64,000 nt of DNA from Escherichia coli (GTDB lineage Bacteria; Pseudomonadota; Gammaproteobacteria; Enterobacterales; Enterobacteriaceae), in the NCBI GenBank assembly GCA_902500125.1, contig GCA_902500125.1_4132.1; one strand, 5' to 3'. A program made the position numbers and the translations under genes. The stretch's first letter is position 1. Each line of letters begins with the position of its first letter. Positions 34,143 through 52,238 of the stretch are shown one piece after another. The notes under the pieces were generated by a model, which saw only the letters and a list, made by a program, of their open reading frames with translations, did no database searches and was not told the DNA's origin.

Positions 34143-34202
34143 TTGCAAACTAAGTTTAACGGCGTATAATGTTTTACATCGAGAGCGGGAACACTTCCCG
34201 CT
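34143..34202 (+). promoter_or_regulatory. PeSL-like cassette (early-type promoter + stem-loop)
   Basis: -35 TTGCAA 34143; -10 TATAAT 34165 + GTTTTACATC; hairpin 34184-34202; ATG 34226. Confidence 0.7.
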
Positions 34203-34225
34203 ACATATTACGAGAGATTAAAACG

Positions 34226-34588
34226 ATGGCGACTCAAATCACTAAAATTATTGCTAACCTGGTTAACTTTCGCGACGAGATGAAAGATCTTCCGGCAGAA
34301 ACGGTAAAAATTCACATTTCAGCTTATCGGGAACTTATTGCAATGTTACCGCTTAAGCGTGAACAATACGCCGCGACCGTGATGCTTGATGCGATGATCC
34401 ATAAGATGATCGCCAGTGATTTAACGATGGTTTATCAGTATATGGGCGAAAATTTCGCGGTGTATAGTAAACCAGTACCAGGAATGGAAAGTACAGAAGT
34501 ATTACACGGTTTAAATTTAAAACAAGATGCATGGGATAATATGCCTCGTTTCCTGGTATGGGCTGACAGTGGCAAGATTTACGAATAA
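34226..34588 (+). CDS. hypothetical protein (120 aa)
   Basis: ORF 34169 trimmed: its first 19 codons read through the -10 and hairpin; ATG 34226 follows GAGAGA. Confidence 0.65.
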   Translation: MATQITKIIANLVNFRDEMKDLPAETVKIHISAYRELIAMLPLKREQYAATVMLDAMIHKMIASDLTMVYQYMGENFAVYSKPVPGMESTEVLHGLNLKQDAWDNMPRFLVWADSGKIYE

Positions 34589-34602
34589 GTTTTAGAAAGT
34601 AC

Positions 34603-34661
34603 TTGCAAACTAAGTTTAAAAGCGTATAATGTTTTACATCAGGTGGGGAATAGTTCCCCAC
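34603..34661 (+). promoter_or_regulatory. PeSL-like cassette
   Basis: TTGCAA 34603; TATAAT 34625; hairpin GTGGGGAA-tag-TTCCCCAC 34643-34661; ATG 34682. Confidence 0.7.
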
Positions 34662-34681
34662 TATATAAGAGGATTAAAAAA

Positions 34682-34921
34682 ATGGCTAAATCAAAAATGT
34701 TCTTAGGTCACAAAAACAAAACTCATTGGAATGTAAGCCTTTGGATTAATAACGATGAGTCATTGTACCGGTTGGCCCAGGACTTTATTAACGATAGCAC
34801 TAATCGCAATGATGCGGCCCGTCATATGATGTTATTTTTAGAACAGACTGGACAAGATAAAACACCGGACGGATTCAAATATAGCACTACTGCGATCCGT
34901 GCGGCTATGGTTGGAATGTAA
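34682..34921 (+). CDS. hypothetical protein (79 aa), paralog of 36724..36963
   Basis: Trimmed from 34643; shared GHKNKTHWNVSLWINN..ESLYRLAQ...TPDGFKYSTTAIRAAMVGM. Confidence 0.7.
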   Translation: MAKSKMFLGHKNKTHWNVSLWINNDESLYRLAQDFINDSTNRNDAARHMMLFLEQTGQDKTPDGFKYSTTAIRAAMVGM

Positions 34922-35009
34922 TAGAATAGAATTTATTTAAAGTACTATTGCACGGGGATAGTACTTTATAATAGTGTTTTATTCATACACCAACGATAAG
35001 GGCAACAGC

Positions 35010-35276
35010 ATGAATATTAAGTATTTTGCGACGCGTGAACAAGCTCGGATCGCCGCTCGCCAGGACGGGGCAACGTTTAAAGATATGGGCGTACAATCGG
35101 AACGTGGTAAACGTTGGGCCATTGTAAAGCGTAGTACAGCCAGATCATTACAGTACTGGTTAGCGGCGTTAAAAAGTCCCGATAGTGTATCGCGTCGAGT
35201 GGTAGAAATAAAGCTCGACCGAAAGGGCAACCGCGTGACCGTGTACCGTACTAAAAAGATTGCAGTACTTGAATAA
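35010..35276 (+). CDS. hypothetical protein (88 aa), paralog of 46942..47337
   Basis: Trimmed from 34974; KYFATREQARIAARQDGATFKDMG...DRKGNRVTVY shared with 46942. Confidence 0.65.
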   Translation: MNIKYFATREQARIAARQDGATFKDMGVQSERGKRWAIVKRSTARSLQYWLAALKSPDSVSRRVVEIKLDRKGNRVTVYRTKKIAVLE

Positions 35277-35283
35277 AAAGTAC

Positions 35284-35342
35284 TTGCACCGTACTGATAA
35301 AAGCGTATAATGTTTTACATCGAGAGCGGGAACTCTTCCCGC
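35284..35342 (+). promoter_or_regulatory. PeSL-like cassette
   Basis: TTGCAC 35284; TATAAT 35306; hairpin 35326-35342; SD GGAG. Confidence 0.7.
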
Positions 35343-35363
35343 CTATAACCTGGAGTAATGAAA

Positions 35364-35594
35364 ATGACTAATATGTATATGACTGAAGTTAAAACCGTAA
35401 AAGATACTACCACGAATAAAACTACTTACTTACAGCGGATCTGTGGTGTATGGCAACGTATCAGCAAATCAAAGTACTTTAAATTAACATCATATGCAAA
35501 CCGTTCGGATTCATTCAGTACTGAAATAAAAGGTAATAAAGTACACCAATACGGCACTTATTATTATTACAGCCTGGACGCGATTGCAGTATAA
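35364..35594 (+). CDS. hypothetical protein (76 aa)
   Basis: ATG 35364 is 8 nt after GGAG (ATG 35358 is too close to the SD). Confidence 0.6.
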   Translation: MTNMYMTEVKTVKDTTTNKTTYLQRICGVWQRISKSKYFKLTSYANRSDSFSTEIKGNKVHQYGTYYYYSLDAIAV

Positions 35595-35624
35595 GCAGTT
35601 TACAAATCTTTACAATTGCCGGTA

Positions 35625-35704
35625 TTGACTTATTTTGTCAGTACTGGCATAATGTATTCATTGGCAGATAAGCCGTAGCCCATAGGGTGCGGGAGTGTAT
35701 CTAT
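35625..35704 (+). promoter_or_regulatory. U element: promoter + conserved transcribed core
   Basis: TTGACT 35625, 17 nt, CATAAT 35648; core GCCCATAGGGTGC 35678-35690; TGTATCTAT 35696-35704. Confidence 0.5.
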
Positions 35705-35734
35705 AGAAAAATTAGTTTAGTATAGTTACAATTG

Positions 35735-35797
35735 TGCACCCGGTGGGTTAGCTGTTGTCATGGGGTATATTATGCCAGTACTTGATAATGCTGTCAA
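35735..35797 (-). promoter_or_regulatory. U element, convergent partner of 35625-35704
   Basis: Minus strand TTGACA (35797-35792), 17 nt, CATAAT (35774-35769), core AACCCACCGGGTGC (35759-35746). Confidence 0.5.
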
Positions 35798-35843
35798 TAC
35801 TTTTTTTTAATATTCAGTACTGAAAACTATTTTTAAAAAGTAC

Positions 35844-35871
35844 TTGTAAACTATGTTTAAAGGCGTATAAT
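35844..35871 (+). promoter_or_regulatory. early-type promoter (upstream of tandem pair)
   Basis: AGTACTTGTAA: TTGTAA 35844; TATAAT 35866 + GTTTTACATC. Confidence 0.6.
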
Positions 35872-35876
35872 GTTTT

Positions 35877-35953
35877 ACATCAGGACGGGGAACGAAATAA
35901 GTAACTTCCCGTTAAGTAGCCCAGGAGTAAGGCACACGAAAAACTCCCCTGAT
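35877..35953 (+). ncRNA. conserved structured leader RNA (copy 1 of 3)
   Basis: Closing helix ATCAGG/CCTGAT; inner hairpin ACGGGGAA..TTCCCGT; motifs TAAGTAG, AGTAAG, ACGAAAAACT; near-identical at 46016-46090. Confidence 0.4.
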
Positions 35954-35961
35954 AAAATAGT

Positions 35962-35989
35962 TTGACAATAGAAAGTAAAAGCGTATAAT
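35962..35989 (+). promoter_or_regulatory. sigma70-like promoter (downstream of tandem pair)
   Basis: TTGACA 35962, 16 nt, TATAAT 35984; ATG 36022. Confidence 0.6.
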
Positions 35990-36021
35990 ACTTACATCAA
36001 CTACTGAATGAGGGTTACAAA

Positions 36022-36633
36022 ATGAAAACTATCACTACTACTACTTTTGTTATGGCTTTTTCTGAACTGAACGCAGAACAAAAAACGGCGGCTATCGAAC
36101 TGGTTCGGGATCGTGAGCGTTCATGTGAGGATAATTTCTTTGCTGAGGGCGTTATCGAGTACTATAAAGAAACAGTACTACCAGAATACGGCATAGATGA
36201 AGCTGAATTGCAATACAGTGGTTTTTGGTCGCAAGGTGACGGTGCATCAATCAGTACTAACCACGTTGACGCTGAGAAGTTTTTACGCAAGGTTAAGGCG
36301 TTAACGAAATATCGTTCAATCCGTCACCTGTTGAACGAGGATGATTTAGAAATGAGTGTAGAACGTTTCCAATCACGCTACGCACACGAAAACACGGTAG
36401 GCGGTTGCGTTGATACTCGCTACACTGATTTAACTGTAAAACAGGCGGCATTGGCTGAGGATCTGGAAAACTTACTGACTGATGCGATCCGTGAATTATC
36501 TCGTAAGTTGTACCGTGATTTAGAGAATGCATATGAGGATCAATTCACTACTGAAAACATTACTGCACTGATTGAGGGTAACGAATATCAATTCAATGTT
36601 ATTGATGGCGTAGTGGAATCAATCGAATATTAA
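36022..36633 (+). CDS. hypothetical protein (203 aa)
   Basis: ORF track; GAGGG upstream; acidic; motif GFWSQGDGAS; function not recognised. Confidence 0.7.
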   Translation: MKTITTTTFVMAFSELNAEQKTAAIELVRDRERSCEDNFFAEGVIEYYKETVLPEYGIDEAELQYSGFWSQGDGASISTNHVDAEKFLRKVKALTKYRSIRHLLNEDDLEMSVERFQSRYAHENTVGGCVDTRYTDLTVKQAALAEDLENLLTDAIRELSRKLYRDLENAYEDQFTTENITALIEGNEYQFNVIDGVVESIEY

Positions 36634-36644
36634 TTTAAAAAGTA

Positions 36645-36705
36645 CTTGTAAACTAAGTTTAAAAGCGTATAATACTTTACATCAAGGCGGGGAGTGGTTC
36701 CCCGC
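36645..36705 (+). promoter_or_regulatory. PeSL-like cassette
   Basis: TTGTAA 36645; TATAAT 36668; hairpin GCGGGGA-gtggt-TCCCCGC 36687-36705. Confidence 0.7.
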
Positions 36706-36723
36706 TCAAACGAGGATTTAAAA

Positions 36724-36963
36724 ATGGCTAGTACTAAAACTTACAACGGACACAAAAACAAAACTCATTGGAATGTAAGCCTTTGGATTAATAACGGTGA
36801 GTCATTGTATCGGCTTGCTCAAAGTTGCATCGCACAAAGTAGAACTAAAGATATTGCTGCGGAATGTATGTACCGCAGATTAAAAGCCAACGGTACTACT
36901 ACAACGCCGGACGGCTTTAAGTATAGCACTACTGCGATCCGTGCTGCAATGGTTGGAATGTAA
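36724..36963 (+). CDS. hypothetical protein (79 aa), paralog of 34682..34921
   Basis: Trimmed from 36694 to ATG 36724 after GAGGA. Confidence 0.7.
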   Translation: MASTKTYNGHKNKTHWNVSLWINNGESLYRLAQSCIAQSRTKDIAAECMYRRLKANGTTTTPDGFKYSTTAIRAAMVGM

Positions 36964-37020
36964 TATTCAGTACTGAGATAATGGCGGGTAATAGTTCCCG
37001 CCTTTACTGAGGGTTATCTA

Positions 37021-37281
37021 ATGAGTAAAGTAATTAGCTATACAGCACTAAGCAAGTCATTATCTATTAGCCAGTGCACCGATGGTTATTGGCTTTATGA
37101 TGAAACGCGTGGAATGAATTTAGCTATGCGTGCAAAAACTGCTGAGGCGGCGTATCTTGAGGCACTGGAATACTACCAGGAACGTTTAACGGAAGTAGAA
37201 GAAGATTATAAAAGCCTCAAAGCGAAAGTAGATCATTTCGTCGGTCAATTCATCGAGGAAGACGACGATAAACAATACTGA
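37021..37281 (+). CDS. hypothetical protein (86 aa)
   Basis: ORF track; GAGGG upstream; preceded by hairpin GGCGGG-taatagtt-CCCGCC. Confidence 0.6.
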   Translation: MSKVISYTALSKSLSISQCTDGYWLYDETRGMNLAMRAKTAEAAYLEALEYYQERLTEVEEDYKSLKAKVDHFVGQFIEEDDDKQY

Positions 37282-37291
37282 AAAAAAGTAC

Positions 37292-37350
37292 TTGCAATTA
37301 GTTTTCAGTACTGTATAATGGTTTACATCAAAGGGAGAAATGGTTCTCCC
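37292..37350 (+). promoter_or_regulatory. PeSL-like cassette
   Basis: TTGCAA 37292; TATAAT 37314; hairpin GGGAGAA-atgg-TTCTCCC 37333-37350. Confidence 0.7.
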
Positions 37351-37369
37351 TGGTAATGAGGAAAATAAA

Positions 37370-37591
37370 ATGGCTAATATCACTACTCTTTCCCAACTGG
37401 AAGCACTGGTGAAATCTATGCGGGAACATGCCGACAAAATCGGCGTACAAGATCCAGCCGTTTGCTTCTGCGACGAATTGAATGATGATACCCTGGTAAT
37501 AGCAGAAGTCCAGGACGTTTCTAACTATTCATCGCGTTACACTGGCGGCGTAGCAAATAAAGGCGACTTCTGTTTATACCTTACAAAATAA
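37370..37591 (+). CDS. hypothetical protein (73 aa)
   Basis: Trimmed from 37340 to ATG 37370 after GAGGAA. Confidence 0.65.
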   Translation: MANITTLSQLEALVKSMREHADKIGVQDPAVCFCDELNDDTLVIAEVQDVSNYSSRYTGGVANKGDFCLYLTK

Positions 37592-37595: not shown

Positions 37596-37626
37596 GCGGG
37601 GAGATAATAACTCCCCGTTACTTTTT
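37596..37626 (+). terminator. rho-independent terminator
   Basis: CGGGGAG-ataataa-CTCCCCG then TTACTTTTT. Confidence 0.6.
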
Positions 37627-37726: not shown

Positions 37727-37759
37727 CAACTATTTTTCAAATACTTTTTATTAAAATAC

Positions 37760-37814
37760 TTGCAATTAGTTTTTAAACGCGTATAATGTTTTGCATAGGG
37801 GGAGCGGTTCCCCC
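37760..37814 (+). promoter_or_regulatory. PeSL-like cassette
   Basis: TTGCAA 37760; TATAAT 37782; hairpin GGGGGA-gcggt-TCCCCC 37798-37814. Confidence 0.7.
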
Positions 37815-37835
37815 TGGTAACTAAGGAATAATAAA

Positions 37836-38072
37836 ATGCTTGAACAAATCAAATCAACGACTTCGAATGTAACGGGAACGGTAGCACACTTTACTAGTGA
37901 TGAATCGCGGGGCGTACCCTATTGTGCTGTACATGTAAACACTGATGGCAACTACTGGTTTACTGTTTACGGATCATATTCCTTTGGACGACCAGGGCAT
38001 CAAAAAATTCTGGATAAAGTACAGCCAACGGGTAAAAATATCACTGCTGAAATGTTTTATAAAAAATCATAA
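37836..38072 (+). CDS. hypothetical protein (78 aa)
   Basis: ORF track; TAAGGAA SD. Confidence 0.65.
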   Translation: MLEQIKSTTSNVTGTVAHFTSDESRGVPYCAVHVNTDGNYWFTVYGSYSFGRPGHQKILDKVQPTGKNITAEMFYKKS

Positions 38073-38077
38073 AGTAC

Positions 38078-38136
38078 TTGATAATAGTTTTTAGTACTGT
38101 ATAATATTTTACATCGCAAGGGGGAGCGGTTCCCCC
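38078..38136 (+). promoter_or_regulatory. PeSL-like cassette
   Basis: TTGATA 38078; TATAAT 38100; hairpin 38120-38136 identical to the one at 37798. Confidence 0.65.
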
Positions 38137-38156
38137 TGGTAACTAAGGATAATCAA

Positions 38157-38456
38157 ATGAAAATTGCAATCATCGCCCTGGCTTTATCTGTTTCCTCTTT
38201 CGCTGTTAATGCGTCATTAGATGTAAGTAGTGAAAAATTCATTCAGTGCACTGTTGCAATGACCGATGAAAGTACTGGCGAGATTGTATTAAAGGATCTG
38301 GAGATTCAGCCGGAAGCATTTAAAAACGGCCCGTTCCATGAAGAAGACGAAAACGGTAGCACGACAATTTATTATGATGCCAGTACTAAACGCGGTTCGG
38401 TCACTGTAATGGATACTGAGAAAGTAACGCATACCGGCGTTATTAATTGCCGTTGA
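38157..38456 (+). CDS. small secreted protein, signal-peptide/Cys-pair family
   Basis: Signal peptide MKIAIIALALSVSSFAVNA; Cys pair IQCTVA ... VINCR. Confidence 0.7.
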   Translation: MKIAIIALALSVSSFAVNASLDVSSEKFIQCTVAMTDESTGEIVLKDLEIQPEAFKNGPFHEEDENGSTTIYYDASTKRGSVTVMDTEKVTHTGVINCR

Positions 38457-38477: not shown

Positions 38478-38708
38478 ATGACTAAGCGAATTGTTTTACT
38501 TAACGAAAGCAGTACTACACAACTACTTAACGCCGTGCATTATGATATTGAAACGAGCGTTAATCTTATCAGTACTGTAGTACTGTTGGACACTGGAAAG
38601 GTCGCCAATGATAAAGCGATTGCAGGTATATTAACGGATCTTGAGCCTGGTAGCAGTGCACCAATAACGTTAAATGGTAAAGTGTTTAATATTTTACTCA
38701 CTGATTAA
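38478..38708 (+). CDS. hypothetical protein (76 aa)
   Basis: ORF track; GGGG upstream. Confidence 0.6.
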   Translation: MTKRIVLLNESSTTQLLNAVHYDIETSVNLISTVVLLDTGKVANDKAIAGILTDLEPGSSAPITLNGKVFNILLTD

Positions 38709-38714: not shown

Positions 38715-38737
38715 AGCCCACCTGGTGGGCTTTTTTG
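38715..38737 (+). terminator. rho-independent terminator
   Basis: AGCCCACCTGGTGGGCT + T6. Confidence 0.75.
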
Positions 38738-38790
38738 TTTTTGTAGTATCGTAGTACTGAGATACTTTGAAAATAGTTTTAAGAAAGTAG

Positions 38791-38818
38791 TTGACATTAC
38801 CGCAGAAAAGCGTAGAAT
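38791..38818 (+). promoter_or_regulatory. sigma70-like promoter
   Basis: TTGACA 38791, 16 nt, TAGAAT 38813. Confidence 0.55.
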
Positions 38819-38823
38819 GTATT

Positions 38824-38898
38824 ACATCAAGACGGGGAGCACTAAGTAGACCGCCAGTAAGTCGAACGAAAAACTGGACACGTCGAGAAAACTTTGAT
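38824..38898 (+). ncRNA. structured leader RNA (diverged copy 3)
   Basis: ACATCAAGACGGGGAG...; closing helix ATCAAG/CTTTGAT; shares TAAGTAG, AGTAAG, ACGAAAAACT with 35877 and 46016. Confidence 0.3.
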
Positions 38899-38941
38899 AC
38901 ACTAATAAACGTAAACTAAACTTTAATTGAGGATTTATAAA

Positions 38942-39424
38942 ATGGCTAATGTAAAATCATTCATCAAAGCACTGGTAGCAAATGAAACTAACGTCGCGGC
39001 TGAGATCCTGGCTGAACTGGATAACGATACCATGAAAGCGGTACGCAATAATTTTAACATCGCGTACAGTACTGCGAAAGAACTACAAGCAAATAAAGCG
39101 GCAGAGATTGAAGCAGCGAAGGCGGCCCGTGAAGCAGAACTACAAGCAACAATTGAAAGTATCCAGGCGGCAGTAGTTGGGCTGGATCTGGAAGTAGTTA
39201 CCGAGATGGCACAAAAAGCCCTGGCGGTTAAGTACGGGGAAGATAAGCCGGAATCTAAGCCTAAAAAATGGATTCAAGAACGTGTAGCGGTAGTACTTGA
39301 TAACGGGGAAGAATATCTGATTCCGGTGCGTGGTAACTGCATTGCGGTAGTACTGGATGCTATCAAAGAAAGCGGATTGACTCGCGAGGAATGGATCGAA
39401 GCTCATCGCAAAGTTGAAGCATAA
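38942..39424 (+). CDS. hypothetical protein (160 aa), Ala/Glu-rich helical centre
   Basis: Trimmed from 38927 to ATG 38942 after GAGGA. Confidence 0.65.
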   Translation: MANVKSFIKALVANETNVAAEILAELDNDTMKAVRNNFNIAYSTAKELQANKAAEIEAAKAAREAELQATIESIQAAVVGLDLEVVTEMAQKALAVKYGEDKPESKPKKWIQERVAVVLDNGEEYLIPVRGNCIAVVLDAIKESGLTREEWIEAHRKVEA

Positions 39425-39445: not shown

Positions 39446-39472
39446 AGCCCACTTATACAGTGGGCTTTTTTG
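39446..39472 (+). terminator. rho-independent terminator
   Basis: AGCCCACT-tatac-AGTGGGCT + T6. Confidence 0.75.
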
Positions 39473-39560: not shown

Positions 39561-39625
39561 CGTTAAAGTCGTTAGAATGCGATTGAGTGCGTTTAAAGTA
39601 TTTTGCAAAAAGTAATAAAAAGTAC

Positions 39626-39687
39626 TTGCACGATTAAGAGATTAGCGTATAATGTTTTACATCGAGAGGGGGAAACGGTTCTCCTTC
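39626..39687 (+). promoter_or_regulatory. PeSL-like cassette
   Basis: TTGCAC 39626; TATAAT 39648; imperfect hairpin 39666-39687. Confidence 0.65.
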
Positions 39688-39708
39688 CAAATCAAAGGAA
39701 TCAAAACA

Positions 39709-39936
39709 ATGGCTATCGTAATCGCTTATGTAACTGGTACTACTGGCACTTCTTCTACTGTTGCTGTAATTACCAACAAGAAAGGTGCGGAATTACATTC
39801 TGCAATGGATACCTGGGCGGTAAATGAGTTCGGTCAGTGGGCAAGTGTAGCATATGTTGAAACCTATCAAGTGCCAACCATTAGCTTAACGGATCTCGGT
39901 GTAGATCGTATCCTTTGCCTGGATGAATTAAATTAA
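39709..39936 (+). CDS. hypothetical protein (75 aa)
   Basis: Trimmed from 39652 to ATG 39709 after AAGGAA. Confidence 0.65.
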   Translation: MAIVIAYVTGTTGTSSTVAVITNKKGAELHSAMDTWAVNEFGQWASVAYVETYQVPTISLTDLGVDRILCLDELN

Positions 39937-39944
39937 AAAAGTAC

Positions 39945-40005
39945 TTGCAAAGTAAGTTGGATAAAGTATAATACATTACATCAAGGGGAGAAAATGGTTC
40001 TCCCC
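39945..40005 (+). promoter_or_regulatory. PeSL-like cassette
   Basis: TTGCAA 39945; TATAAT 39967; hairpin GGGGAGAA..TTCTCCCC 39985-40005. Confidence 0.7.
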
Positions 40006-40023
40006 ACTAAGAGGAAACTAAAA

Positions 40024-40167
40024 ATGAAAACTTGTCAATGTGGTAAAAAATCTATTACTGGTTTGAAACGGGGCGTTGCTCTTTGTCAGTATCACTATAA
40101 CGCTCAGGTATGGGGTAAAGAGTGGGCCGACCAGGTGGAAGCAGTAAAGAAAGCAAAAAGTAAGTAA
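40024..40167 (+). CDS. small Cys-containing protein (47 aa)
   Basis: Not in ORF track; own cassette + AGAGGAAA SD; MKTCQCGKK...ALCQYHYNAQ (CxC...CxxH). Confidence 0.55.
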   Translation: MKTCQCGKKSITGLKRGVALCQYHYNAQVWGKEWADQVEAVKKAKSK

Positions 40168-40186
40168 AATTATTATCACAGTACTA

Positions 40187-40215
40187 TTGACATAGATTGA
40201 TAGTACTGGCATAAT
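40187..40215 (+). promoter_or_regulatory. class-2 promoter (AGTACT-flanked)
   Basis: AGTACTATTGACA: TTGACA 40187, 17 nt, CATAAT 40210; about 85-bp unit repeated at 40445-40542. Confidence 0.65.
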
Positions 40216-40248
40216 AGATTTTATCAAGACAACTAAGAGGAAACAATA

Positions 40249-40461
40249 ATGGCTATCATCACAAAAATCAAAGTAAACAAATCACTGGTTAAGCTGGAAG
40301 AAGTGAAAGAAGGTTATAAAGTATCGTGGTGCGGCATGTATCGGATTTTTACAGATGTTGACGATGCAATCAATTACTACACTGACACGGTAAAAAACTT
40401 TGTTCGTGCTGATGTGGTTATGGCAGTGGCAACACACAAAGCATCGAAAGAAAGTAAGTAA
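40249..40461 (+). CDS. hypothetical protein (70 aa)
   Basis: ORF track; AGAGGAAA SD. Confidence 0.65.
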   Translation: MAIITKIKVNKSLVKLEEVKEGYKVSWCGMYRIFTDVDDAINYYTDTVKNFVRADVVMAVATHKASKESK

Positions 40462-40480
40462 AAATATTATCACAGTACTA

Positions 40481-40509
40481 TTGACATAGTTTGATAGTAC
40501 TGGCATAAT
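40481..40509 (+). promoter_or_regulatory. class-2 promoter (repeat of 40187)
   Basis: TTGACA 40481, CATAAT 40504. Confidence 0.65.
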
Positions 40510-45848: not shown

Positions 45849-45930
45849 AGGGATTGACTCCGGTCAGTCCCTTTGCTATTATATACGCATAGAAACAAAT
45901 TAGCCCACCGGGTGCATAAATGTATCTATT
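45849..45930 (+). promoter_or_regulatory. composite cassette: terminator hairpin carrying -35, plus U element core
   Basis: AGGGATTGAC-tccg-GTCAGTCCCT; TTGACT 45854, TATTAT 45877; core GCCCACCGGGTGC 45903-45915; TGTATCTATT 45921-45930; Chi 45935-45942 follows. Confidence 0.55.
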
Positions 45931-45982
45931 GTTTGCTGGTGGCTAGTACTATCAAGTACTGAAAACTATTTTTAAAAAGTAC

Positions 45983-46010
45983 TTGCATTGTAATTAGAAT
46001 CAAGTATAAT
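45983..46010 (+). promoter_or_regulatory. early-type promoter (upstream of tandem pair)
   Basis: TTGCAT 45983; TATAAT 46005. Confidence 0.6.
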
Positions 46011-46015
46011 GTTTT

Positions 46016-46090
46016 ACATCAGGACGGGGAACGAAACAAGTAACCCCGTTAAGTAGTCCAGGAGTAAGACATACGAAAAACTCCCCTGAT
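46016..46090 (+). ncRNA. conserved structured leader RNA (copy 2 of 3)
   Basis: Near-identical to 35877-35953; inner stem ACGGGG/CCCCGT. Confidence 0.4.
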
Positions 46091-46098
46091 AAAATAGT

Positions 46099-46126
46099 TT
46101 GACAATAGAAAGTAAACGAGTATAAT
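46099..46126 (+). promoter_or_regulatory. sigma70-like promoter (downstream of tandem pair)
   Basis: TTGACA 46099, 16 nt, TATAAT 46121. Confidence 0.6.
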
Positions 46127-46159
46127 ACTTACATCAACCACTGATAAGGAAACATTAAA

Positions 46160-46435
46160 ATGCGGATTCTACTGACAGCTAACGAAATCGAACAAGTACT
46201 GACTACTAACCTGGAACAATGGAAACGTGATGCAGATATCCAGGCGGTTCAATGGCTTAACGATAAGTTAACGCCGGATGACTTAAGCAAGATTGTAGAT
46301 CCTCAATTCTACGAAGATATTCACGACACGGCTTTAAGCGTCGAGGATGTACTTGATAAGCATTACATTAATACCGATTTACAGGTTTACGGGCGTAAAA
46401 ACTTTATCACTATTCACGACATTTACAATACTTAA
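46160..46435 (+). CDS. hypothetical protein (91 aa)
   Basis: ORF track; AAGGAAA SD. Confidence 0.65.
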   Translation: MRILLTANEIEQVLTTNLEQWKRDADIQAVQWLNDKLTPDDLSKIVDPQFYEDIHDTALSVEDVLDKHYINTDLQVYGRKNFITIHDIYNT

Positions 46436-46438
46436 GTA

Positions 46439-46500
46439 TTGACAAAGTATCTTAGTACTGTATAATAGTTTACATCAAGGCGGGGAAATGGTTCCCCTCC
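46439..46500 (+). promoter_or_regulatory. PeSL-like cassette
   Basis: TTGACA 46439; TATAAT 46461; hairpin 46479-46500. Confidence 0.7.
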
Positions 46501-46522
46501 TAACAAAGAGAGAGAAATAAAA

Positions 46523-46846
46523 ATGGCTATGATCCTTACCCAGAAAGTGGAATTGAAAATTGTAACCTCCTTTGACATTAAAGTTAATCGCTGGACTGAT
46601 CGGAACGGCAATACTTACCACTCTTGCTACGTGTCTGCGTTAATTGGCGACCGCTGGGAAGACCTGGGACACGAAACCTTTACATACGGTTACGGTACGC
46701 AAGGCGAATACACTGGTTTGGAGATCATTAAAGAAACCGTTATAGGTTTCAACCCGAAAGAAAAAGTTATGCACCGCATCGAAAAAGAGATTAACAAAGA
46801 AATAACAGTTCGCTACTACGATGTAAAACGTAAGAAAGACATGTAA
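46523..46846 (+). CDS. hypothetical protein (107 aa), paralog of 40543..40887
   Basis: ORF track; shared motifs (see 40543). Confidence 0.7.
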   Translation: MAMILTQKVELKIVTSFDIKVNRWTDRNGNTYHSCYVSALIGDRWEDLGHETFTYGYGTQGEYTGLEIIKETVIGFNPKEKVMHRIEKEINKEITVRYYDVKRKKDM

Positions 46847-46868: not shown

Positions 46869-46897
46869 TTGACATTGCCCAGATAGTACTTTATAAT
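46869..46897 (+). promoter_or_regulatory. sigma70-like promoter
   Basis: TTGACA 46869, 17 nt, TATAAT 46892; a decayed copy lies upstream of 35010. Confidence 0.6.
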
Positions 46898-47337: not shown

Positions 47338-47359
47338 TAACTTGCAGTACTAACAACAC

Positions 47360-47384
47360 GGCGGGATCAGTTCCCGCCTTTTTT
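47360..47384 (+). terminator. rho-independent terminator
   Basis: GGCGGGA-tcagt-TCCCGCC + T6. Confidence 0.75.
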
Positions 47385-47398
47385 ATAGGACAAACAAA

Positions 47399-47653
47399 AT
47401 GATTAAGGTTCAACTATATAAAGATAACATCTTACGGGTACACTATAAAGCACCGAAGAGAATCATCACAAAGGCCGTACAGCTTGCTAATGAGTTTATT
47501 AATGGTAACCTATTACCAAGGAAGTTAAGCAACGGGAAACTGCGTGTAATCGACGTGGACACTAACAACAGGATAGTAATCGAGAACACAGGAAAAATAA
47601 ACCTTTATGAGCATCAACAATACAATAAGAAAATAAAACTAATATCACGTTGA
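47399..47653 (+). CDS. hypothetical protein (84 aa)
   Basis: ORF track; AGGA upstream. Confidence 0.6.
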   Translation: MIKVQLYKDNILRVHYKAPKRIITKAVQLANEFINGNLLPRKLSNGKLRVIDVDTNNRIVIENTGKINLYEHQQYNKKIKLISR

Positions 47654-47678
47654 CAGTACTCAAATGTTTTAGTATTAT
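47650..47678 (+). promoter_or_regulatory. sigma70-like promoter (about 60-bp unit repeated at 47924)
   Basis: TTGACA 47650, 17 nt, TATTAT 47673. Confidence 0.6.
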
Positions 47679-47925: not shown

Positions 47926-47954
47926 TTGACAGTACTCAAATGTTTTAGTACTAT
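47926..47954 (+). promoter_or_regulatory. sigma70-like promoter (repeat of 47650)
   Basis: TTGACA 47926, 17 nt, TACTAT 47949. Confidence 0.55.
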
Positions 47955-48842: not shown

Positions 48843-48855
48843 AAAAGATTAAAAA

Positions 48856-48942
48856 AGGGATTGACTCCGGTCAGTCCCTTTGCTATTATATATCCATTGA
48901 GAGATAACTCACTGACCCATAGGGTGCGGAAGTGTATCTATT
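48856..48942 (+). promoter_or_regulatory. composite cassette: terminator hairpin carrying -35, plus U element core
   Basis: TTGACT 48861, TATTAT 48884; core CCCATAGGGTGC 48916-48927; TGTATCTATT 48933-48942. Confidence 0.55.
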
Positions 48943-48983
48943 ATATAAGTATTCAGTACTGAAAACTATTTTTTAAAAAGTAC

Positions 48984-49044
48984 TTGCATTGTACTTAGAA
49001 TCAAGTATAATGTTTTATATCGAGAGGGGGAAATGGTTCTCCCT
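48984..49044 (+). promoter_or_regulatory. PeSL-like cassette
   Basis: TTGCAT 48984; TATAAT 49006; hairpin 49025-49044. Confidence 0.7.
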
Positions 49045-49065
49045 GGTATATTAAGGAATAAAATC

Positions 49066-49287
49066 ATGACTACAATGACTTGCATTTACGCTTCCAATCG
49101 TCTGAATGATGCGGCCTTTAATGTTGATTCAGAATATCAATGTTATCGGGATGAAAATAAAAAAGTTTTTGTAGTTGATAATAATGGTTTCCATATTGAA
49201 TTACAATCCGGCTTCACTGGTGTTGATGGTAAATCAGTATGGGGCGTACAGGATGATAAAGGTACATATCATTTTAAACGTAATTAA
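49066..49287 (+). CDS. hypothetical protein (73 aa)
   Basis: Trimmed from 49033 to ATG 49066 after AAGGAA. Confidence 0.65.
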   Translation: MTTMTCIYASNRLNDAAFNVDSEYQCYRDENKKVFVVDNNGFHIELQSGFTGVDGKSVWGVQDDKGTYHFKRN

Positions 49288-49291
49288 GTAT

Positions 49292-49350
49292 TTGACAAAG
49301 TATCTTAGTACTGTATAATAGTTTACATCAAGGGGAGAATAGTTCTCCCC
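49292..49350 (+). promoter_or_regulatory. PeSL-like cassette
   Basis: TTGACA 49292; TATAAT 49314; hairpin GGGGAGAA-tag-TTCTCCCC 49332-49350. Confidence 0.7.
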
Positions 49351-49371
49351 GATACTAAAAGGAATAAAATC

Positions 49372-49776
49372 ATGACTACTACTAATCTTGCTCGGAATAT
49401 CGCCAACGATAAAAATCATGCTGCAATGGTCGCTGGTTACATTGAAGCTATGCAATTCAGTACTGTACATAATGATAACGGCGATTACCTGGAAGATTAT
49501 GAGTTATCTGATGAAGCACGTCAAGCGGCGGTGATTGCATGTTCTCGCTTCATTGAGAAACACGGTAATGATCTGGAAGTAGTTCGCGGTATGTTTATTG
49601 ATTACGGTTATGAGCAAGCTGGTCATGATCTGTTCCTTACCCGCGAAGGTCACGGAACTGGTTTTTGGGATCGTGGTTTAGGTCACTATGGCGATGTATT
49701 CACGAAGTACTGCGAAGAAATCAACGTTTGCGATCCCTATGTAGGCGATGATAACTTAATCTATATGGGCGAATAA
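49372..49776 (+). CDS. hypothetical protein (134 aa)
   Basis: ORF track; AAGGAA SD; motif GHDLFLTREGHGTGFWDRG; function not recognised. Confidence 0.7.
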   Translation: MTTTNLARNIANDKNHAAMVAGYIEAMQFSTVHNDNGDYLEDYELSDEARQAAVIACSRFIEKHGNDLEVVRGMFIDYGYEQAGHDLFLTREGHGTGFWDRGLGHYGDVFTKYCEEINVCDPYVGDDNLIYMGE

Positions 49777-49782
49777 AAGTAT

Positions 49783-49841
49783 TTGACAAAGTATATCAGT
49801 ACTGTATAATAGTTTACATCAAGGGGAGAATAGTTCTCCCC
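49783..49841 (+). promoter_or_regulatory. PeSL-like cassette
   Basis: TTGACA 49783; TATAAT 49805; hairpin 49823-49841 (same as 49332). Confidence 0.7.
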
Positions 49842-49863
49842 AATACTAAAAGGAAACAAAATT

Positions 49864-50136
49864 ATGTCCAGCTACTCCGCTACTATGATCATTAAAGATA
49901 TGAACGGTAATCCTACTTCTGCTGGTGGATCATTTGGAAATATTAACTTAGATGGGCGGTTATCCATGCAATCAGCCATCGATGCAGCGAAAGAAGTTTT
50001 TAAGAATGAATGTACTGTTAGTAAGCTGGATTATATGGGTTTCGCTATCGAGAAAACTACTCGTTTTGTGAACTACAAAAATCCACTGATGATTGATACT
50101 AACCTGAAAGCTAACGAAGTGGGGTACTTATTATGA
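49864..50136 (+). CDS. hypothetical protein (90 aa)
   Basis: ORF track; AAGGAAA SD; contains Chi at 49921. Confidence 0.65.
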   Translation: MSSYSATMIIKDMNGNPTSAGGSFGNINLDGRLSMQSAIDAAKEVFKNECTVSKLDYMGFAIEKTTRFVNYKNPLMIDTNLKANEVGYLL

Positions 50137-50324
50137 CAGTAGAAGAAGTAAAAAAAGTACTGGCAGTACTACGATATCATAATCATTGCAAGGTGAAGAA
50201 TGATCCTGATTATCTTGATTCATCCCTGGAGGAAGACACCTTGAACGCTATAAGCCATATGCAGACATTAGCAAAGCGTATGACTGAAAAGAACATGCCG
50301 GACTATATCGGAAATAAAATTTAA
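50133..50324 (+). CDS. hypothetical protein (63 aa)
   Basis: ATGA-coupled to previous gene. Confidence 0.6.
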   Translation: MTVEEVKKVLAVLRYHNHCKVKNDPDYLDSSLEEDTLNAISHMQTLAKRMTEKNMPDYIGNKI

Positions 50325-50331
50325 AAAGTAC

Positions 50332-50393
50332 TTGCATTGTAGTTAGATTAACGTATAATGTTTTATATCGAGAGGGGGAAATGGTTTCCCCTC
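50332..50393 (+). promoter_or_regulatory. PeSL-like cassette
   Basis: TTGCAT 50332; TATAAT 50354; hairpin 50372-50393. Confidence 0.7.
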
Positions 50394-50411
50394 AAGTCCA
50401 GGAGATACACA

Positions 50412-50675
50412 ATGAACACTATCGAAATCACTATCAATGCACACGTATACGACAACGTAGTACTGCAAACTACTATGACCGCTAATGATACCAGTACTTT
50501 GCGGAATACTGTTATTAGTGCCGTATGTGCTGCAATCGGTGATGTATCCCTGGAAAATGCAGAACATATCAACAACGGTTTCACTATGTGCAAGCGTGAT
50601 AACGCAAAACATATCATCGTGGAAGGTTACGGCGGTGTAGAATTTAATGTTTATATGAAAAAAGTACTTGCATAA
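50412..50675 (+). CDS. hypothetical protein (87 aa)
   Basis: Trimmed from 50358 to ATG 50412 after AGGAGA; C-terminus KKVLA* is encoded by the next cassette's AAAAAAGTACTTGCATAA. Confidence 0.65.
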   Translation: MNTIEITINAHVYDNVVLQTTMTANDTSTLRNTVISAVCAAIGDVSLENAEHINNGFTMCKRDNAKHIIVEGYGGVEFNVYMKKVLA

Positions 50676-50724
50676 TAACTAAAACAAAGTATAATGTTTT
50701 GCATAGGGGGAGATATCCTCCCCC
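50668..50724 (+). promoter_or_regulatory. PeSL-like cassette
   Basis: TTGCAT 50668; TATAAT 50690; hairpin GGGGGAG-atatc-CTCCCCC 50706-50724. Confidence 0.7.
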
Positions 50725-50742
50725 ACTAAAAGGAGTAATAAA

Positions 50743-50967
50743 ATGGCTAACTTTGATGAACTGATGCGGGAAGTAGCTAACCTGGCAGAAGAGAAGAAAT
50801 CATTCGATTCTATCTATAACACCGCTCACCGTGATTCAGTACTGGCATGTAACCAGGATCAAAAAGATGAACTAATCGCCACCTATCATGAAGCATGGAA
50901 GTACTACCGACAATGGGAGAAAGAAGAAAGTGAGTCTACCATTGACGGCCTCAATAATCTAATCTAA
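50743..50967 (+). CDS. hypothetical protein (74 aa)
   Basis: ORF track; AAGGAG SD. Confidence 0.65.
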   Translation: MANFDELMREVANLAEEKKSFDSIYNTAHRDSVLACNQDQKDELIATYHEAWKYYRQWEKEESESTIDGLNNLI

Positions 50968-50986
50968 AAGTTTTATTTCAGTACTA

Positions 50987-51015
50987 TTGACATAGCTTGA
51001 TAGTACTGATGTAAT
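50987..51015 (+). promoter_or_regulatory. class-2 promoter
   Basis: AGTACTATTGACA: TTGACA 50987, 17 nt, TGTAAT 51010. Confidence 0.55.
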
Positions 51016-51043
51016 AACTTTACTAACTACAAGGGGAAACATA

Positions 51044-51301
51044 ATGGATCAGTTCACACAATATCGGGTAAATCCTCAAGCTATGGCCTACGTAGAAGAC
51101 CATAAAACGTTACCAGTACTGCAACCAGTTAAAGGCCATATCTATCGTGCAATGTCGTGGTGTGCGGCCCAGGATGGCTATAAAACCGTAGCCGTTGGTA
51201 TGTACTGCGGTAATGGTGAATGGTTTGATCCAAATAATCCGGTATCCATTGACAGTACTGAAAAAATGAAATGGGCCGACTACATCGAAGATATTTCATA
51301 A
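51044..51301 (+). CDS. hypothetical protein (85 aa)
   Basis: ORF track; AGGGGAAA upstream. Confidence 0.65.
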   Translation: MDQFTQYRVNPQAMAYVEDHKTLPVLQPVKGHIYRAMSWCAAQDGYKTVAVGMYCGNGEWFDPNNPVSIDSTEKMKWADYIEDIS

Positions 51302-51308
51302 AAACTAT

Positions 51309-51369
51309 TTGACAGTACTAACCAGTAATGTATAATGTTTTACATAGAGCGGGGGAATAGTTCTCCCGC
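51309..51369 (+). promoter_or_regulatory. PeSL-like cassette
   Basis: TTGACA 51309; TATAAT 51331; hairpin 51349-51369. Confidence 0.7.
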
Positions 51370-51391
51370 CAATAGTTTGGAGTAAAACATT

Positions 51392-51592
51392 ATGTCTATC
51401 GCTATCGCCCTGGTTGAAGTACTGAAAGAAGCTAAAGCCAACCAGATCGACGTAAAGATCCAGGAACTACAAAACGGCTTAATCGGCTGTACTTGTACCG
51501 CTGGTGGAGCGGCAGACTATCGAGAACACGAATCACTCGAATCACTGGTTCGGTATCTTACCATGATCGTTGATGATTGGAGAATCATCTAA
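51392..51592 (+). CDS. hypothetical protein (66 aa)
   Basis: ORF track; GGAG SD; contains Chi at 51500. Confidence 0.65.
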   Translation: MSIAIALVEVLKEAKANQIDVKIQELQNGLIGCTCTAGGAADYREHESLESLVRYLTMIVDDWRII

Positions 51593-51608
51593 CAAAAAAG
51601 AATAAAAA

Positions 51609-51687
51609 AGGGATTGACTCCGGTCAGTCCCTTTGCTATTATATACGCATAGACAAAAACTAGCCCACAGGGTGCATAGGTGTATCC
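51609..51687 (+). promoter_or_regulatory. composite cassette: terminator hairpin carrying -35, plus U element core
   Basis: TTGACT 51614, TATTAT 51637; core GCCCACAGGGTGC 51663-51675; TGTATCC 51681; Chi 51722-51729 follows. Confidence 0.55.
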
Positions 51688-51754
51688 AAAATATATAGTT
51701 AATAACGGTGAGTAACTATCTGCTGGTGGAACTAAAACTATTAATAAAAAAGTA

Positions 51755-51816
51755 TTGACAAAGTATATCAGTACTGCAATAATGTATCTCGTAGGGCGGC
51801 AATGGTGCGACGGCCC
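51755..51816 (+). promoter_or_regulatory. promoter + weak stem-loop (degenerate PeSL)
   Basis: TTGACA 51755; -10 CAATAAT near 51777; GC-rich imperfect hairpin 51794-51816. Confidence 0.45.
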
Positions 51817-51836
51817 ACAAAGTTAGGAGATTCAAA

Positions 51837-52169
51837 ATGACTACTTCAATCGCTATCGTTAAAGCTTTCATCCGTACTAATGTTTCCTCTGTATTCATCG
51901 ACGGCCTCGACCGTAACGTAGAATACTCAATCATTATCGCACAAACGGCAAACGGTTCTCGGTACATCCTGAATGATAGTGAAGCAAATCACTACTACTT
52001 CACTAAAGCCACTGGCTTTAAACGCATCGATGCTGATGTAGTATACGCTAAGATGAATAAGCTGGTAGACAAGATTAACGCGAAAGGTACTATCGATTTA
52101 CAGTACTGGACCGAAACCGATCCAGAATATGGATCTCACCGCTACCTGAATCCAGGTATTAAAATGTAA
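51837..52169 (+). CDS. hypothetical protein (110 aa)
   Basis: ORF track; AGGAGA SD. Confidence 0.65.
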   Translation: MTTSIAIVKAFIRTNVSSVFIDGLDRNVEYSIIIAQTANGSRYILNDSEANHYYFTKATGFKRIDADVVYAKMNKLVDKINAKGTIDLQYWTETDPEYGSHRYLNPGIKM

Positions 52170-52176
52170 AAAGTAC

Positions 52177-52238
52177 TTGCATAGTACTTAGAATCAAGTA
52201 TAATGTTTTACATAGAGAGGGGGAAATGGTTCTCCCTC
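52177..52238 (+). promoter_or_regulatory. PeSL-like cassette
   Basis: TTGCAT 52177; TATAAT 52199; hairpin 52217-52238. Confidence 0.7.

Follow-up and report, generated by a model that had tools for sequence, protein, structure and literature searches.

About 30 copies of a promoter cassette, in which a sigma70-type promoter is followed by a short G/C hairpin, an A-rich Shine-Dalgarno (SD) region and an ATG, were found in a 64,000-nt stretch of DNA deposited under Escherichia coli (contig GCA_902500125.1_4132.1; referred to below, at its full length, as the window). The window was shown to belong to an Asteriusvirus jumbo coliphage of the PBECO4/121Q/G17 type. We consider it rather probable that the cassettes form the immediate-early field of the direct terminal repeat (DTR) of this phage, that the hairpin protects the 5′ leader of the transcripts, and that recombination between cassettes swaps the genes behind them.

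Cassette Motif and Architecture

A preliminary description of the window had reported a recurrent string of promoter, hairpin, SD and ATG before nearly every gene start at 34–52 kb, and this was borne out by both the enrichment and the layout of the motif. Matches to the core TATAATGTTTTACATC (up to 3 mismatches) numbered 33 in the window, where 3.45 ± 2.0 were expected and none of 100 shuffles reached this number; 28 of the 33 cores were located on the plus strand between 32,785 and 52,199. Likewise, AGTACTTGCA (up to 1 mismatch) was present 49 times (5.5 expected). The cassettes read, in order, A-tract, AGTACT, TTGCA(A)/TTGACA, a 16-nt spacer, TATAAT, GTTTTACATC, hairpin, A-rich SD and ATG, the ATG lying 53–62 nt past the start of the −10 box. 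A −35 box (TTGCAA or TTGACA) sits 16 nt upstream of every core, ten plus-strand promoters match the sigma70 consensus perfectly (12/12), and the discriminator is AT-rich (GTTTTAC) in every cassette promoter.

The estimate of about 30 cassettes with one to three open reading frames (ORFs) each proved fair: the region holds about 50 genes, 25 of them directly behind hairpin cassettes and about 11 behind promoters without a hairpin. The four stop codons that had been quoted as falling before or inside the next cassette (41776, 41992, 44864 and 50675) were all exact, and each lies within the AGTACTTGCA region. The ORF at 41567–41776 ends with AAT AGT ACT TGC AAT TAG and the one ending at 50675 with AAA AAA GTA CTT GCA TAA, while the TAG of ATAGTACTTGCA serves as the stop codon of the ORFs that end at 41992 and 44864.

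A good hairpin is missing at two cores (44473 and 38813). Three cassettes (35866, 46005 and 38813) first drive a conserved non-coding leader of about 80 nt, which is followed by a second, hairpin-less consensus promoter. About nine further promoters in the region belong to a hairpin-less class, CAGTACTATTGACA-N17-(TGG)CATAAT. In the following, each cassette is given with its span and with the gene or genes that it is predicted to drive, all on the plus strand.

Structure, Position, and Covariation of the Leader Hairpin

A hairpin of 6–9 bp was present in all 23 standard cassettes, which had been chosen by the promoter motif alone. These hairpins comprised 20 distinct sequences, and their mean minimum free energy was −13.4 kcal/mol (range −11 to −16) compared to −4.5 ± 0.43 in shuffled sequences. 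The G-rich arm was the 5′ arm in every case. Several G·T pairs are valid on the plus strand only, and the reverse complements fold more weakly (−12.3 vs. −13.4 kcal/mol), which argues that the hairpin is an element acting at the RNA level.

In every hairpin cassette the stem begins 17–22 nt past the end of TATAAT, corresponding to positions +4 to +9 of a transcript predicted to start at the A of ACATC, so that 3–8 unpaired nt are left 5′ of the stem. The hairpins are followed by A-rich tails (e.g., ACTAAGAG and GGTAATGA); none showed at least 5 T within 8 nt, and a terminator scan of the plus strand called none of the cassette hairpins. This position after the predicted start, together with the missing U-tract, points to a 5′-leader RNA element rather than to the promoter-embedded terminator that defines the promoter early stem-loop (PeSL) cassettes discussed below.

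For the covariation analysis, 45 distinct hairpins were taken from three phage genera: from the window, from seven relatives, and from two further genera. Tallies were made on a loop-anchored alignment, since whole-cassette alignment with MAFFT loses the register of the hairpin arms. Base pairing was found in 94.4% of cells compared to 74.1% after shuffling, a percentage that is inflated because the set was pre-selected by folding energy; the compensatory pattern and the test on the 23 cassettes are free of this bias. Double changes were found in 70 cells compared to 18 ± 3.7 in shuffles (0/500 reached 70) and 2–11 in controls with slid partners, and compensatory changes were present at all eight stem positions, showing that structure rather than sequence is conserved, as expected of a stabilizing stem-loop. 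Orthologous comparison at c38100 (38064–38156; genes 38157–38456 and 38478–38708) also showed a compensatory change from G-C to A-T in two of the compared sequences (L004 and L007). Rfam searches gave no match at gathering thresholds; the sole weak matches were at chance level (Trp_leader, E = 0.05, at the 39446 terminator).

In many hairpins (37340, 39994, 42044, 49033, and 52226) the loop has an ATG that immediately follows a GGAG-like arm (GGGGAGAA-ATG-). About half of these ATGs share the frame of the real start, so that automatic gene callers, and with them a number of GenBank records, place the beginning of the ORF within the hairpin. Use of the loop ATG as an alternative start was considered and rejected, as an in-frame share of about half is consistent with chance and the spacing between SD and ATG is too short.

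Genome Identity and Probable Location of the Terminal Repeat

The nearest records to the window were WPEC5, G17, fEgEco12, vB_Ec-M-J, CRJP21, A4, SP27, PBECO4, and 121Q (91–97% identity). The genome is not that of a T4-type phage, the group with whose hyperplastic regions the preliminary description had compared the field: these records are all Asteriusvirus, and a query with the cassettes only (coding sequence excluded) gave no T4-type phage among the 56 matching records. That query matched 650 places, with 10–30 matches per Asteriusvirus genome; in vB_Ec-M-J and Klebsiella phage fENko-Kae01 they fell within the DTR as annotated. The query also matched a few Vequintavirinae/Phapecoctavirus records and, weakly, Yersinia and Erwinia jumbo phages. 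An exact 16-mer scan of viral contigs was uninformative, giving mostly single chance matches.

Base 1 of vB_Ec-M-J, which has an annotated DTR at 1–21,525, aligned to position 32,398 of the window, and the end of that DTR and base 1 of the G17 record were both found at ...GGGTAACCT, at about position 53,090. By homology, a DTR of about 20.7 kb can thus be placed at 32398–53090 (plus strand), with every cassette inside. A DTR of similar size, 20,668 bp, has been determined by PhageTerm for phage Sharanji. The cassette field thus appears to coincide with the DTR of the window phage, a location that fits an early region encoded in the terminal repeat as in the T5-like organization. Beyond the DTR (53.1–64 kb), about 45 small genes of about 70 aa follow each other with 4-nt overlaps (ATGA), and no cassettes or promoters were found between them.

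The DTR genes are mostly ORFans, together with a GNAT acetyltransferase and a DksA/TraR zinc-finger protein, which is typical accessory early content. The latter is encoded at 44186–44443 among the early genes and has a DksA/TraR-type C4 zinc finger (PF01258, E = 3.7e-9). Promoters with AT-rich discriminators are insensitive to DksA/TraR-type inhibition. It is a speculation that the phage factor could depress host promoters of the rRNA type and spare those of the phage itself.

In the first 1.7 kb or so of the predicted DTR (32398–34140), no convincing ORF was found and relatives annotate no gene. It contains a 24-nt unit of CTGGATGGCTAGA-type repeated four times in tandem (33206–33300) and a 53-nt unit repeated 2.6 times, which includes TTCAGTACTGAATAATAGTACT (33949–34084), and the cassette-like promoter at 32785 also lies here. 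Possible roles of this segment are packaging or terminus signals, or non-coding RNAs; two highly expressed non-coding RNAs have been described in the DTR of PA5oct.

Gene Gain, Loss, and Recombination Among Relatives

The gene content between cassettes was found to differ among relatives, in line with the modular shuffling proposed in the preliminary description: 37 of the 50 DTR genes were present in all six relatives tested, and 13 varied. Comparison with three relatives detected 10, 8, and 12 structural events in the DTR (0.52/kb) and 3, 2, and 6 in the flanking cassette-free array (0.34/kb). Of 18 unique events, 15 had a boundary inside a promoter cassette, and seven either had a homologous cassette or promoter (43–99 nt) on each side or left a single chimeric cassette.

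Several events show the crossover at nucleotide level. In relatives, two copies of c46461 (46425–46522; gene 46523–46846) flank an extra gene of 183 nt, at a place where the window has one copy. The gene at 49372–49776 is located between the 91% identical cassettes c49314 (49278–49371) and c49805 (49769–49863; genes 49864–50136 and 50133–50324), and is missing in CRJP21 and SD-15_S21, which have one mosaic cassette left. CRJP21 also lacks the gene at 41846–41992, which is driven by c41789 (41753–41845) in the window. It contains instead a single chimera whose left part corresponds to c41789 and whose right part corresponds to c42018 (41982–42073; gene 42074–42226), joined across the common 27-nt sequence ACATGAAGGGGAGAAATGATTCTCCCC. 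The GNAT gene (44508–44864), which follows the hairpin-less core c44473 (44437–44507), is missing in G17 and SD-15_S21, where a c44473/c44894 chimera is joined at the −10 box. The recombination partner of c44473 is a degenerate cassette (44865–44942; gene 44943–45131) with the −10 box TATAGT and the hairpin GGGGAA-ACATC-TTCCCC. Duplicated promoters flank indels at 43336–43378 and 47654/47926, and c34625 (34589–34681; gene 34682–34921) is duplicated in tandem in SD-15_S21.

Besides gene indels, exchange of parts of cassettes was detected. In four relatives, the gene at 50412–50675 is preceded by the leader of c51331 (51295–51391; gene 51392–51592) up to the end of the hairpin, and then by the SD region of its own cassette, c50354 (50318–50411). 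Cassette c45162 (45126–45216; gene 45217–45429) has a foreign promoter half and the same leader before a conserved gene; compared to relatives, the promoter half is 71–76% identical and the leader half 94–100%. Cassette c39648 (39612–39708; gene 39709–39936) is chimeric in comparison with other phages, with the junction exactly at the 3′ edge of TATAAT. A different hairpin precedes the same gene at c43046 (43010–43105; gene 43106–43318) in one compared sequence (L005), c45459 (45423–45515; genes 45516–45689 and 45686–45835) is missing upstream of the ortholog in four relatives, and relatives have insertions just upstream of c37314 (37278–37369; gene 37370–37591). An apparent leader swap at gene 36724 in L002–L004 was shown to be a match to a paralog (gene 34682) and was not counted.

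Breakpoints were enriched in cassettes compared to random positions (P = 1.6e-6); these statistics are indicative only, since the synteny chain dropped high-scoring segment pairs overlapping by more than 30 nt and produced false gaps (e.g., 43378–46433 in fEgEco12). A measure of hyperplasticity based on BLAST coverage was discarded as largely an artifact. None of 226 records covered at least 80% of 34–52.3 kb (none was above 60%), compared to 20 of 37 for 52.3–64 kb, but coverage is deflated because the cassettes cross-match and the records hold two copies of the DTR, which uses up the 40 alignment pieces allowed; vB_Ec-M-J, listed with 51% coverage, nevertheless aligns almost end to end. Deflated BLAST coverage and confused synteny chaining are thus practical artifacts that the cassettes cause.

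Exchange Between Phage Genera

Individual DTR genes were found to be common to records of Justusliebigvirus (muut, alia), Vequintavirinae (A7_1), and Phapecoctavirus, with 74–93% DNA identity. Whole cassette modules are shared with Justusliebigvirus and Vequintavirinae at 80–93% identity, with junctions at the −10/initial-transcribed core. In muut, a 514-nt segment showed 93% identity to positions 46004–46511 of the window. The homology begins at the −10 box of c46005 (45969–46159), a cassette followed by the leader unit of about 80 nt, a second consensus promoter (46099–46126) and the gene at 46160–46435. The two sequences then agree almost perfectly across the promoter half of c46461 as far as TATAATAGTTTACATC, after which muut continues with a hairpin, SD and gene related to c34625 and gene 34682. 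About ten modules were found in A7_1, in an order different from that of the window. One of these extends from the −35 box of the hairpin-less promoter at 40187 to just past the initial-transcribed block of that at 40481.

Genera of the Justusliebigvirus/Vequintavirinae/Phapecoctavirus type also have arrays of their own, consisting of promoter, ACATC/ACATA, G/C hairpin, SD, and ATG, in which the hairpins have diverged. This shows that the architecture is widespread among large virulent coliphages. As a tentative extension, we suggest that the cassettes might be the joints of an integrase-free exchange system common to large virulent enterobacterial phages (Asteriusvirus, Justusliebigvirus, Vequintavirinae, and Phapecoctavirus). 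In such a system, modules of promoter, leader, and ORF would recombine at the invariant −10/initial-transcribed core, and the 5′ hairpin would be a phage-specific mark protecting early mRNAs from 5′-end-dependent decay or host shutoff.

Early modules in common with the window phage (82–86% identity) were also found in five records of 137–146 kb labeled as Campylobacter phages (accession nos. MG065689, MG065645, MG065656, MG065647, and MG065662). These records, labeled as Campylobacter jejuni phages, have the size of Vequintavirinae/Justusliebigvirus genomes, and their host labels may be wrong.

The AGTACT Motif

The palindrome AGTACT (ScaI) was present 278 times in the window compared to about 22 expected, a 13-fold excess, and the next palindromic 6-mer was 2.9-fold enriched. 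Its density was 6.9/kb in 32398–53090, 3.7/kb in 1–32397, and 1.6/kb in 53091–64000. Enrichment was about 10-fold in coding DNA, in all three phases (76/43/57), and about 26-fold in non-coding DNA, and the motif often occurred within CAGTACTG (65 times) or TTCAGTACTGAA. It had been described as a component of the cassettes. It does occupy fixed places in 26 of 28 cassettes, overlapping the −35 box and/or directly before the −10 box, but it is a genome-wide motif rather than a feature of the cassettes, and its excess extends to coding sequence. All seven Asteriusvirus relatives that were examined showed a 16–22-fold enrichment in their DTRs, compared to 0–1.3-fold in Justusliebigvirus/Vequintavirinae loci, where it was essentially confined to Asteriusvirus-type cassettes. 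This distribution marks those modules as imports. AGTACT is thus a separate, DNA-level signature of Asteriusvirus genomes, perhaps a binding or modification site; a literature search on its over-representation in phages found nothing.

Other Cassettes and Stem-Loops of the Repeat

The first cassette-like promoter of the field, TTGACA-16-TATAAT GTTCTACATA (32749–32860), has a different and longer hairpin and no obvious ORF downstream. Cassette c34165 (34129–34225; gene 34226–34588) has the hairpin AGCGGGAA-CAC-TTCCCGCT. The remaining cassettes that directly precede a gene are c35306 (35270–35363; gene 35364–35594), c36668 (36632–36723; gene 36724–36963), c37782 (37746–37835; gene 37836–38072), c39967 (39931–40023; gene 40024–40167), c42611 (42575–42667; gene 42668–43009), c49006 (48970–49065; gene 49066–49287), c50690 (50654–50742; gene 50743–50967), and the last one, c52199 (52163–52258; gene 52259–52660). 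Among the hairpin-less promoters, the one at 40187–40215 reads CAGTACTATTGACA-17-TGGCATAAT and lies in the module 40184–40522 common to phage A7_1. Other copies, some of which flank the indels mentioned above, were found at 40481–40509, 43338–43365, 43861–43889, 46869–46897, 47650–47678, 47926–47954, and 51755–51783, likewise on the plus strand.

Like c46005, c35866 (35830–36021) is followed by a conserved non-coding leader of about 80 nt and a second consensus promoter (35962–35989), which precedes the gene at 36022–36633. Cassette c38813 (38777–38941; gene 38942–39424) has the −10 box TAGAAT, a weak hairpin, and a long leader related to the unit of these two. The unit, AUCAGGACGGGGAAC...GUUAAGUAG.CCAGGAGUAAG.CA.ACGAAAAACUCCCCUGAU, was found at 35879–35962, 46018–46099, and 38826–38900 in the window and at 6338–6422 in muut (L008), where it lies within the 93% identical Justusliebigvirus module. 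It is predicted to be transcribed from a cassette of the hairpin type, with the second consensus promoter coming next. The unit is a candidate small RNA or structured leader; support from alifold was weak (−7 kcal/mol, one compensatory pair), and no Rfam match was found. Some records annotate an ORF of 31 aa here, with its start inside the −10 box.

A different stem-loop, AAAGGGATTGACTCCGGTCAGTCCCTTT, overlaps the −35 box of a promoter TTGACT-17-TATTAT at 45847–45874, with other copies at 42463–42482, 48854–48881, and 51607–51634 (plus strand). The elements containing these four copies span 42440–42600, 45836–46004, 48843–49005, and 51593–51790; occurrences were also noted at 43900–43935 and 33677–33696. 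Each element is composed of an A-run, the stem-loop on the TTGACT −35 box, a TATTAT −10 box, and a conserved GCCCA..GGGTGCA....TGTATC, and the next cassette begins about 60–130 nt further on. With its stem-loop on the −35 box, this four-copy element resembles a true PeSL most closely, and it may give a short transcript.

Hairpins with a T-run that resemble intrinsic terminators were found on the plus strand at 37596–37618, 38715–38731, 39446–39466, and 47360–47378; their equivalents are annotated as ARNOLD terminators in G17. At 36964–37020 and 47338–47398, intergenic hairpins of the cassette type (GGCGGGTAATAGTTCCCGCC, and GGCGGGATCAGTTCCCGCC followed by TTTTTT) have no recognizable promoter upstream. 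They may be remnants of decayed cassettes, or the same type of stem put to use as a terminator. Outside the DTR, at about 11850–11930, a generic scan for promoters followed by a hairpin detected a promoter-like site with the hairpin GGGGATGA-ACTTC-TCATCCCT (−12 kcal/mol), an SD, and an ATG.

Proposed Function of the Cassettes

According to the explanation that we favor, each cassette would be a self-contained unit read by the host sigma70 RNA polymerase through its UP-like A-tract, −35 box, 16-nt spacer, TATAAT, and AT-rich discriminator, and each small DTR gene would be expressed on its own from the moment of DNA entry. The transcript would start at the A of ACATC, and its first 30 nt or so would fold into the short G/C hairpin, which would be selected at the RNA level. 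As a 5′-terminal protective or insulating structure, this hairpin would slow 5′-end-dependent decay and keep the A-rich SD region free whatever lies upstream. The cassettes would also act as direct repeats of about 90 nt, present about 30 times and sharing an invariant 16-nt core, through which homologous or short-homology recombination could delete, insert, or replace genes and leave the expression signals intact. Crossovers would fall mostly in the invariant −10/initial-transcribed block or in common hairpin sequence, and the same joints would permit exchange of promoter-plus-gene modules with other large virulent coliphages.

The stabilizing role is suggested by likeness to the leaders of ompA, papA, and T7 gene 10. 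As Emory, Bouvet, and Belasco reportedly described in 1992, 5′-terminal stem-loops can act as mRNA stabilizers. The T7 gene 10 leader, GGGAGACCACAACGGUUUCCC, has a similar 5′ hairpin, G-rich on its 5′ side and C-rich on its 3′ side. The cassettes share with such leaders a short G/C hairpin close to the 5′ end, followed by a spacer rich in A/U and a strong SD, but differ in having a predicted single-stranded 5′ tail of 3–8 nt, in being present in about 25 copies per DTR, and in being conserved across phage genera. For the ompA and papA stem-loops, primary references are listed in PMC3997798.

Several points weigh against this explanation. The presence of about nine hairpin-less promoters in the same region shows that the hairpin is not essential for expression, and a 5′ tail of 3–8 nt reaches or exceeds the length commonly cited as the maximum for full protection from 5′-end-dependent decay. 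The literature searched gave no transcription-start or expression data for the Asteriusvirus group. Some structural events were due to microhomology or A-runs and left tandem cassettes, including one deletion at an AGAAA microhomology and one junction in an A-run. Breakpoints were not enriched in cassettes compared to intergenic DNA (47% vs. 39%, P = 0.25); enrichment compared to random positions but not to intergenic DNA does not discriminate between the hypotheses. The preliminary proposal that cassettes mediate modular shuffling is thus supported by crossover footprints inside cassettes but not by the density of events, which in the DTR is only about 1.5-fold that of the flank and not significantly different. 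We infer that the cassettes raise the recombination rate, but they may be no more than convenient repeats that mark where viable products occur, without being a device dedicated to shuffling.

Relation to PeSL Cassettes and Alternative Explanations

PeSL cassettes have been described in the T4-type phages RB49/phi1, PST/T4, and nt-1/KVP40 (Arbiol 2010, PMC2839356; Comeau 2014, PMC4122927). Their stem-loop precedes the transcription start, lying at the promoter or upstream of it, and was examined for terminator activity; five subclasses have been distinguished by its place, which is 5′ of the −35 box, on the −35 box, in the spacer between the two boxes, on the −10 box, or immediately past the −10 box (PMC2839356). 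A further trait ascribed to PeSLs is the formation of encapsidated mini-circles through recombination of adjacent motifs. The preliminary description had identified the cassettes of the window with this architecture, and much of the likeness stood: an early promoter close to the sigma70 consensus and preceded by an AT-rich stretch, a stable stem-loop with a G-run followed by a C-run, an upstream gene whose stop codon falls at the 5′ end and a downstream gene whose SD and ATG form the 3′ end, repetition before small ORFans, and indels or replacements between close relatives with crossovers between −10 and ATG or in the stem-loop. The T4-type host and the stem-loop position did not, and the missing T-run argues against a role in intrinsic termination. 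The cassettes are located in the DTR of an Asteriusvirus jumbo phage rather than in internal hyperplastic regions of T4-type genomes, and their stem-loop, which shows none of the features of a terminator, lies uniformly in the 5′ leader, past the predicted start. We conclude that they are PeSL-like, representing a promoter cassette with a 5′-leader hairpin that is resident in a jumbo-phage terminal repeat and common across genera.

If the cassettes were true PeSLs, the stem-loops would attenuate or terminate the read-through that piles up from tandem promoters, as terminator-promoter composites do in RB49/phi1. A polyG/polyC PeSL stem-loop reduced lacZ expression as strongly as rrnB T1 (PMC2839356), the stems found here are likewise intergenic and formed by a G-run and a C-run, and the four copies of the stem-loop overlapping −35 (45847 etc.) look like terminator-promoter composites. 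We nevertheless regard this explanation as unlikely, since the cassette hairpins lie downstream of their own predicted start and would attenuate their own transcripts, and since their tails are A-rich, without T-runs, none was called by the plus-strand terminator scan, and terminators with a T-run are present separately.

An explanation that needs no special role for the cassettes is that ordinary strong early promoters resemble each other because the same polymerase reads them, and that boundaries are found there because selection keeps recombinants with intact genes. Sigma70-like promoters with UP elements among small early ORFs have been reported for CBB, rV5, CB7, and PA5oct, and the comparison of breakpoints with intergenic DNA and the modest excess of events over the flank both agree with this. 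Paralogous genes can also supply the repeats: in the flank, a 269-nt insertion bordered by a 222-nt repeat (56316–56537) in relatives corresponds to unequal exchange between tandem paralogous genes. This explanation is improbable in our judgment, because promoter function leaves a transcribed hairpin with compensatory changes across three genera unexplained, and because the seven indels with duplicated cassettes at both ends or a single chimera, in which the crossover lies in identical cassette sequence, are a footprint of recombination.

It had further been proposed that the hairpin may gate translation, its GGAG arm mimicking an SD and CUCC acting as anti-SD. The hairpin would then switch ribosome access or, in a variant of this idea, be a target of a RegB-like GGAG nuclease that shuts off early mRNAs. 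T4 RegB cleaves GGAG in early mRNAs, and the CTCC in the tail of c52199 can pair with the GGAG of the SD. This explanation is very doubtful, since GGAG was found in only 12 of 23 5′ arms, the other 11 hairpins being of types such as GGGGAA and GCGGGAA and cassettes of other genera using GGCGGGG/GGGCGGC, since covariation keeps the pairing rather than GGAG, and since the real SD is single-stranded in essentially all predicted folds.

Comparison With Other Systems

In phage T5, the pre-early/early region is located in the terminal repeat and has very strong sigma70 promoters. We know of no two-step DNA transfer of the T5 kind in Asteriusvirus. In the Rak2-like phage CBB, RpoD-like promoters with an UP element are present in the early region and the 22-kb DTR (PMC5259590). 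The phage studied here resembles both in having many small host-takeover genes in a long DTR, served by strong host-type promoters with conserved flanks, but for the T5 and CBB promoters neither a hairpin in the leader nor a part in recombination has been described. Genome papers on Rak2-like, rV5-like, and Certrevirus phages likewise report sigma70-like promoters with UP elements, some in the DTR, and mention neither a leader hairpin nor a role in recombination.

As an array of small, individually exchangeable genes served by promoters, the cassette field also resembles an integron, an analogy also drawn by Arbiol 2010 (PMC2839356). It differs from integrons in having no integrase, attC, or attI, in providing each gene with its own promoter, and in relying on general or short-homology recombination.

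Implications for Large Virulent Coliphages

The results extend the PeSL idea, which has been little followed, from T4-type phages to jumbo phages and their terminal repeats. They provide evidence at nucleotide level that repeated expression signals are the sites at which accessory early genes are swapped, also between genera with unrelated core genomes. The leader hairpin, which covaries in three genera, could serve as a compact expression part and offers a case in which protection of phage mRNA can be tested. Early-gene arrays of this kind are the main reservoir of host-takeover and anti-defense functions, and the exchange unit, from the −35/−10 of one cassette to the next initial-transcribed block, helps to delimit, compare, and engineer such genes.

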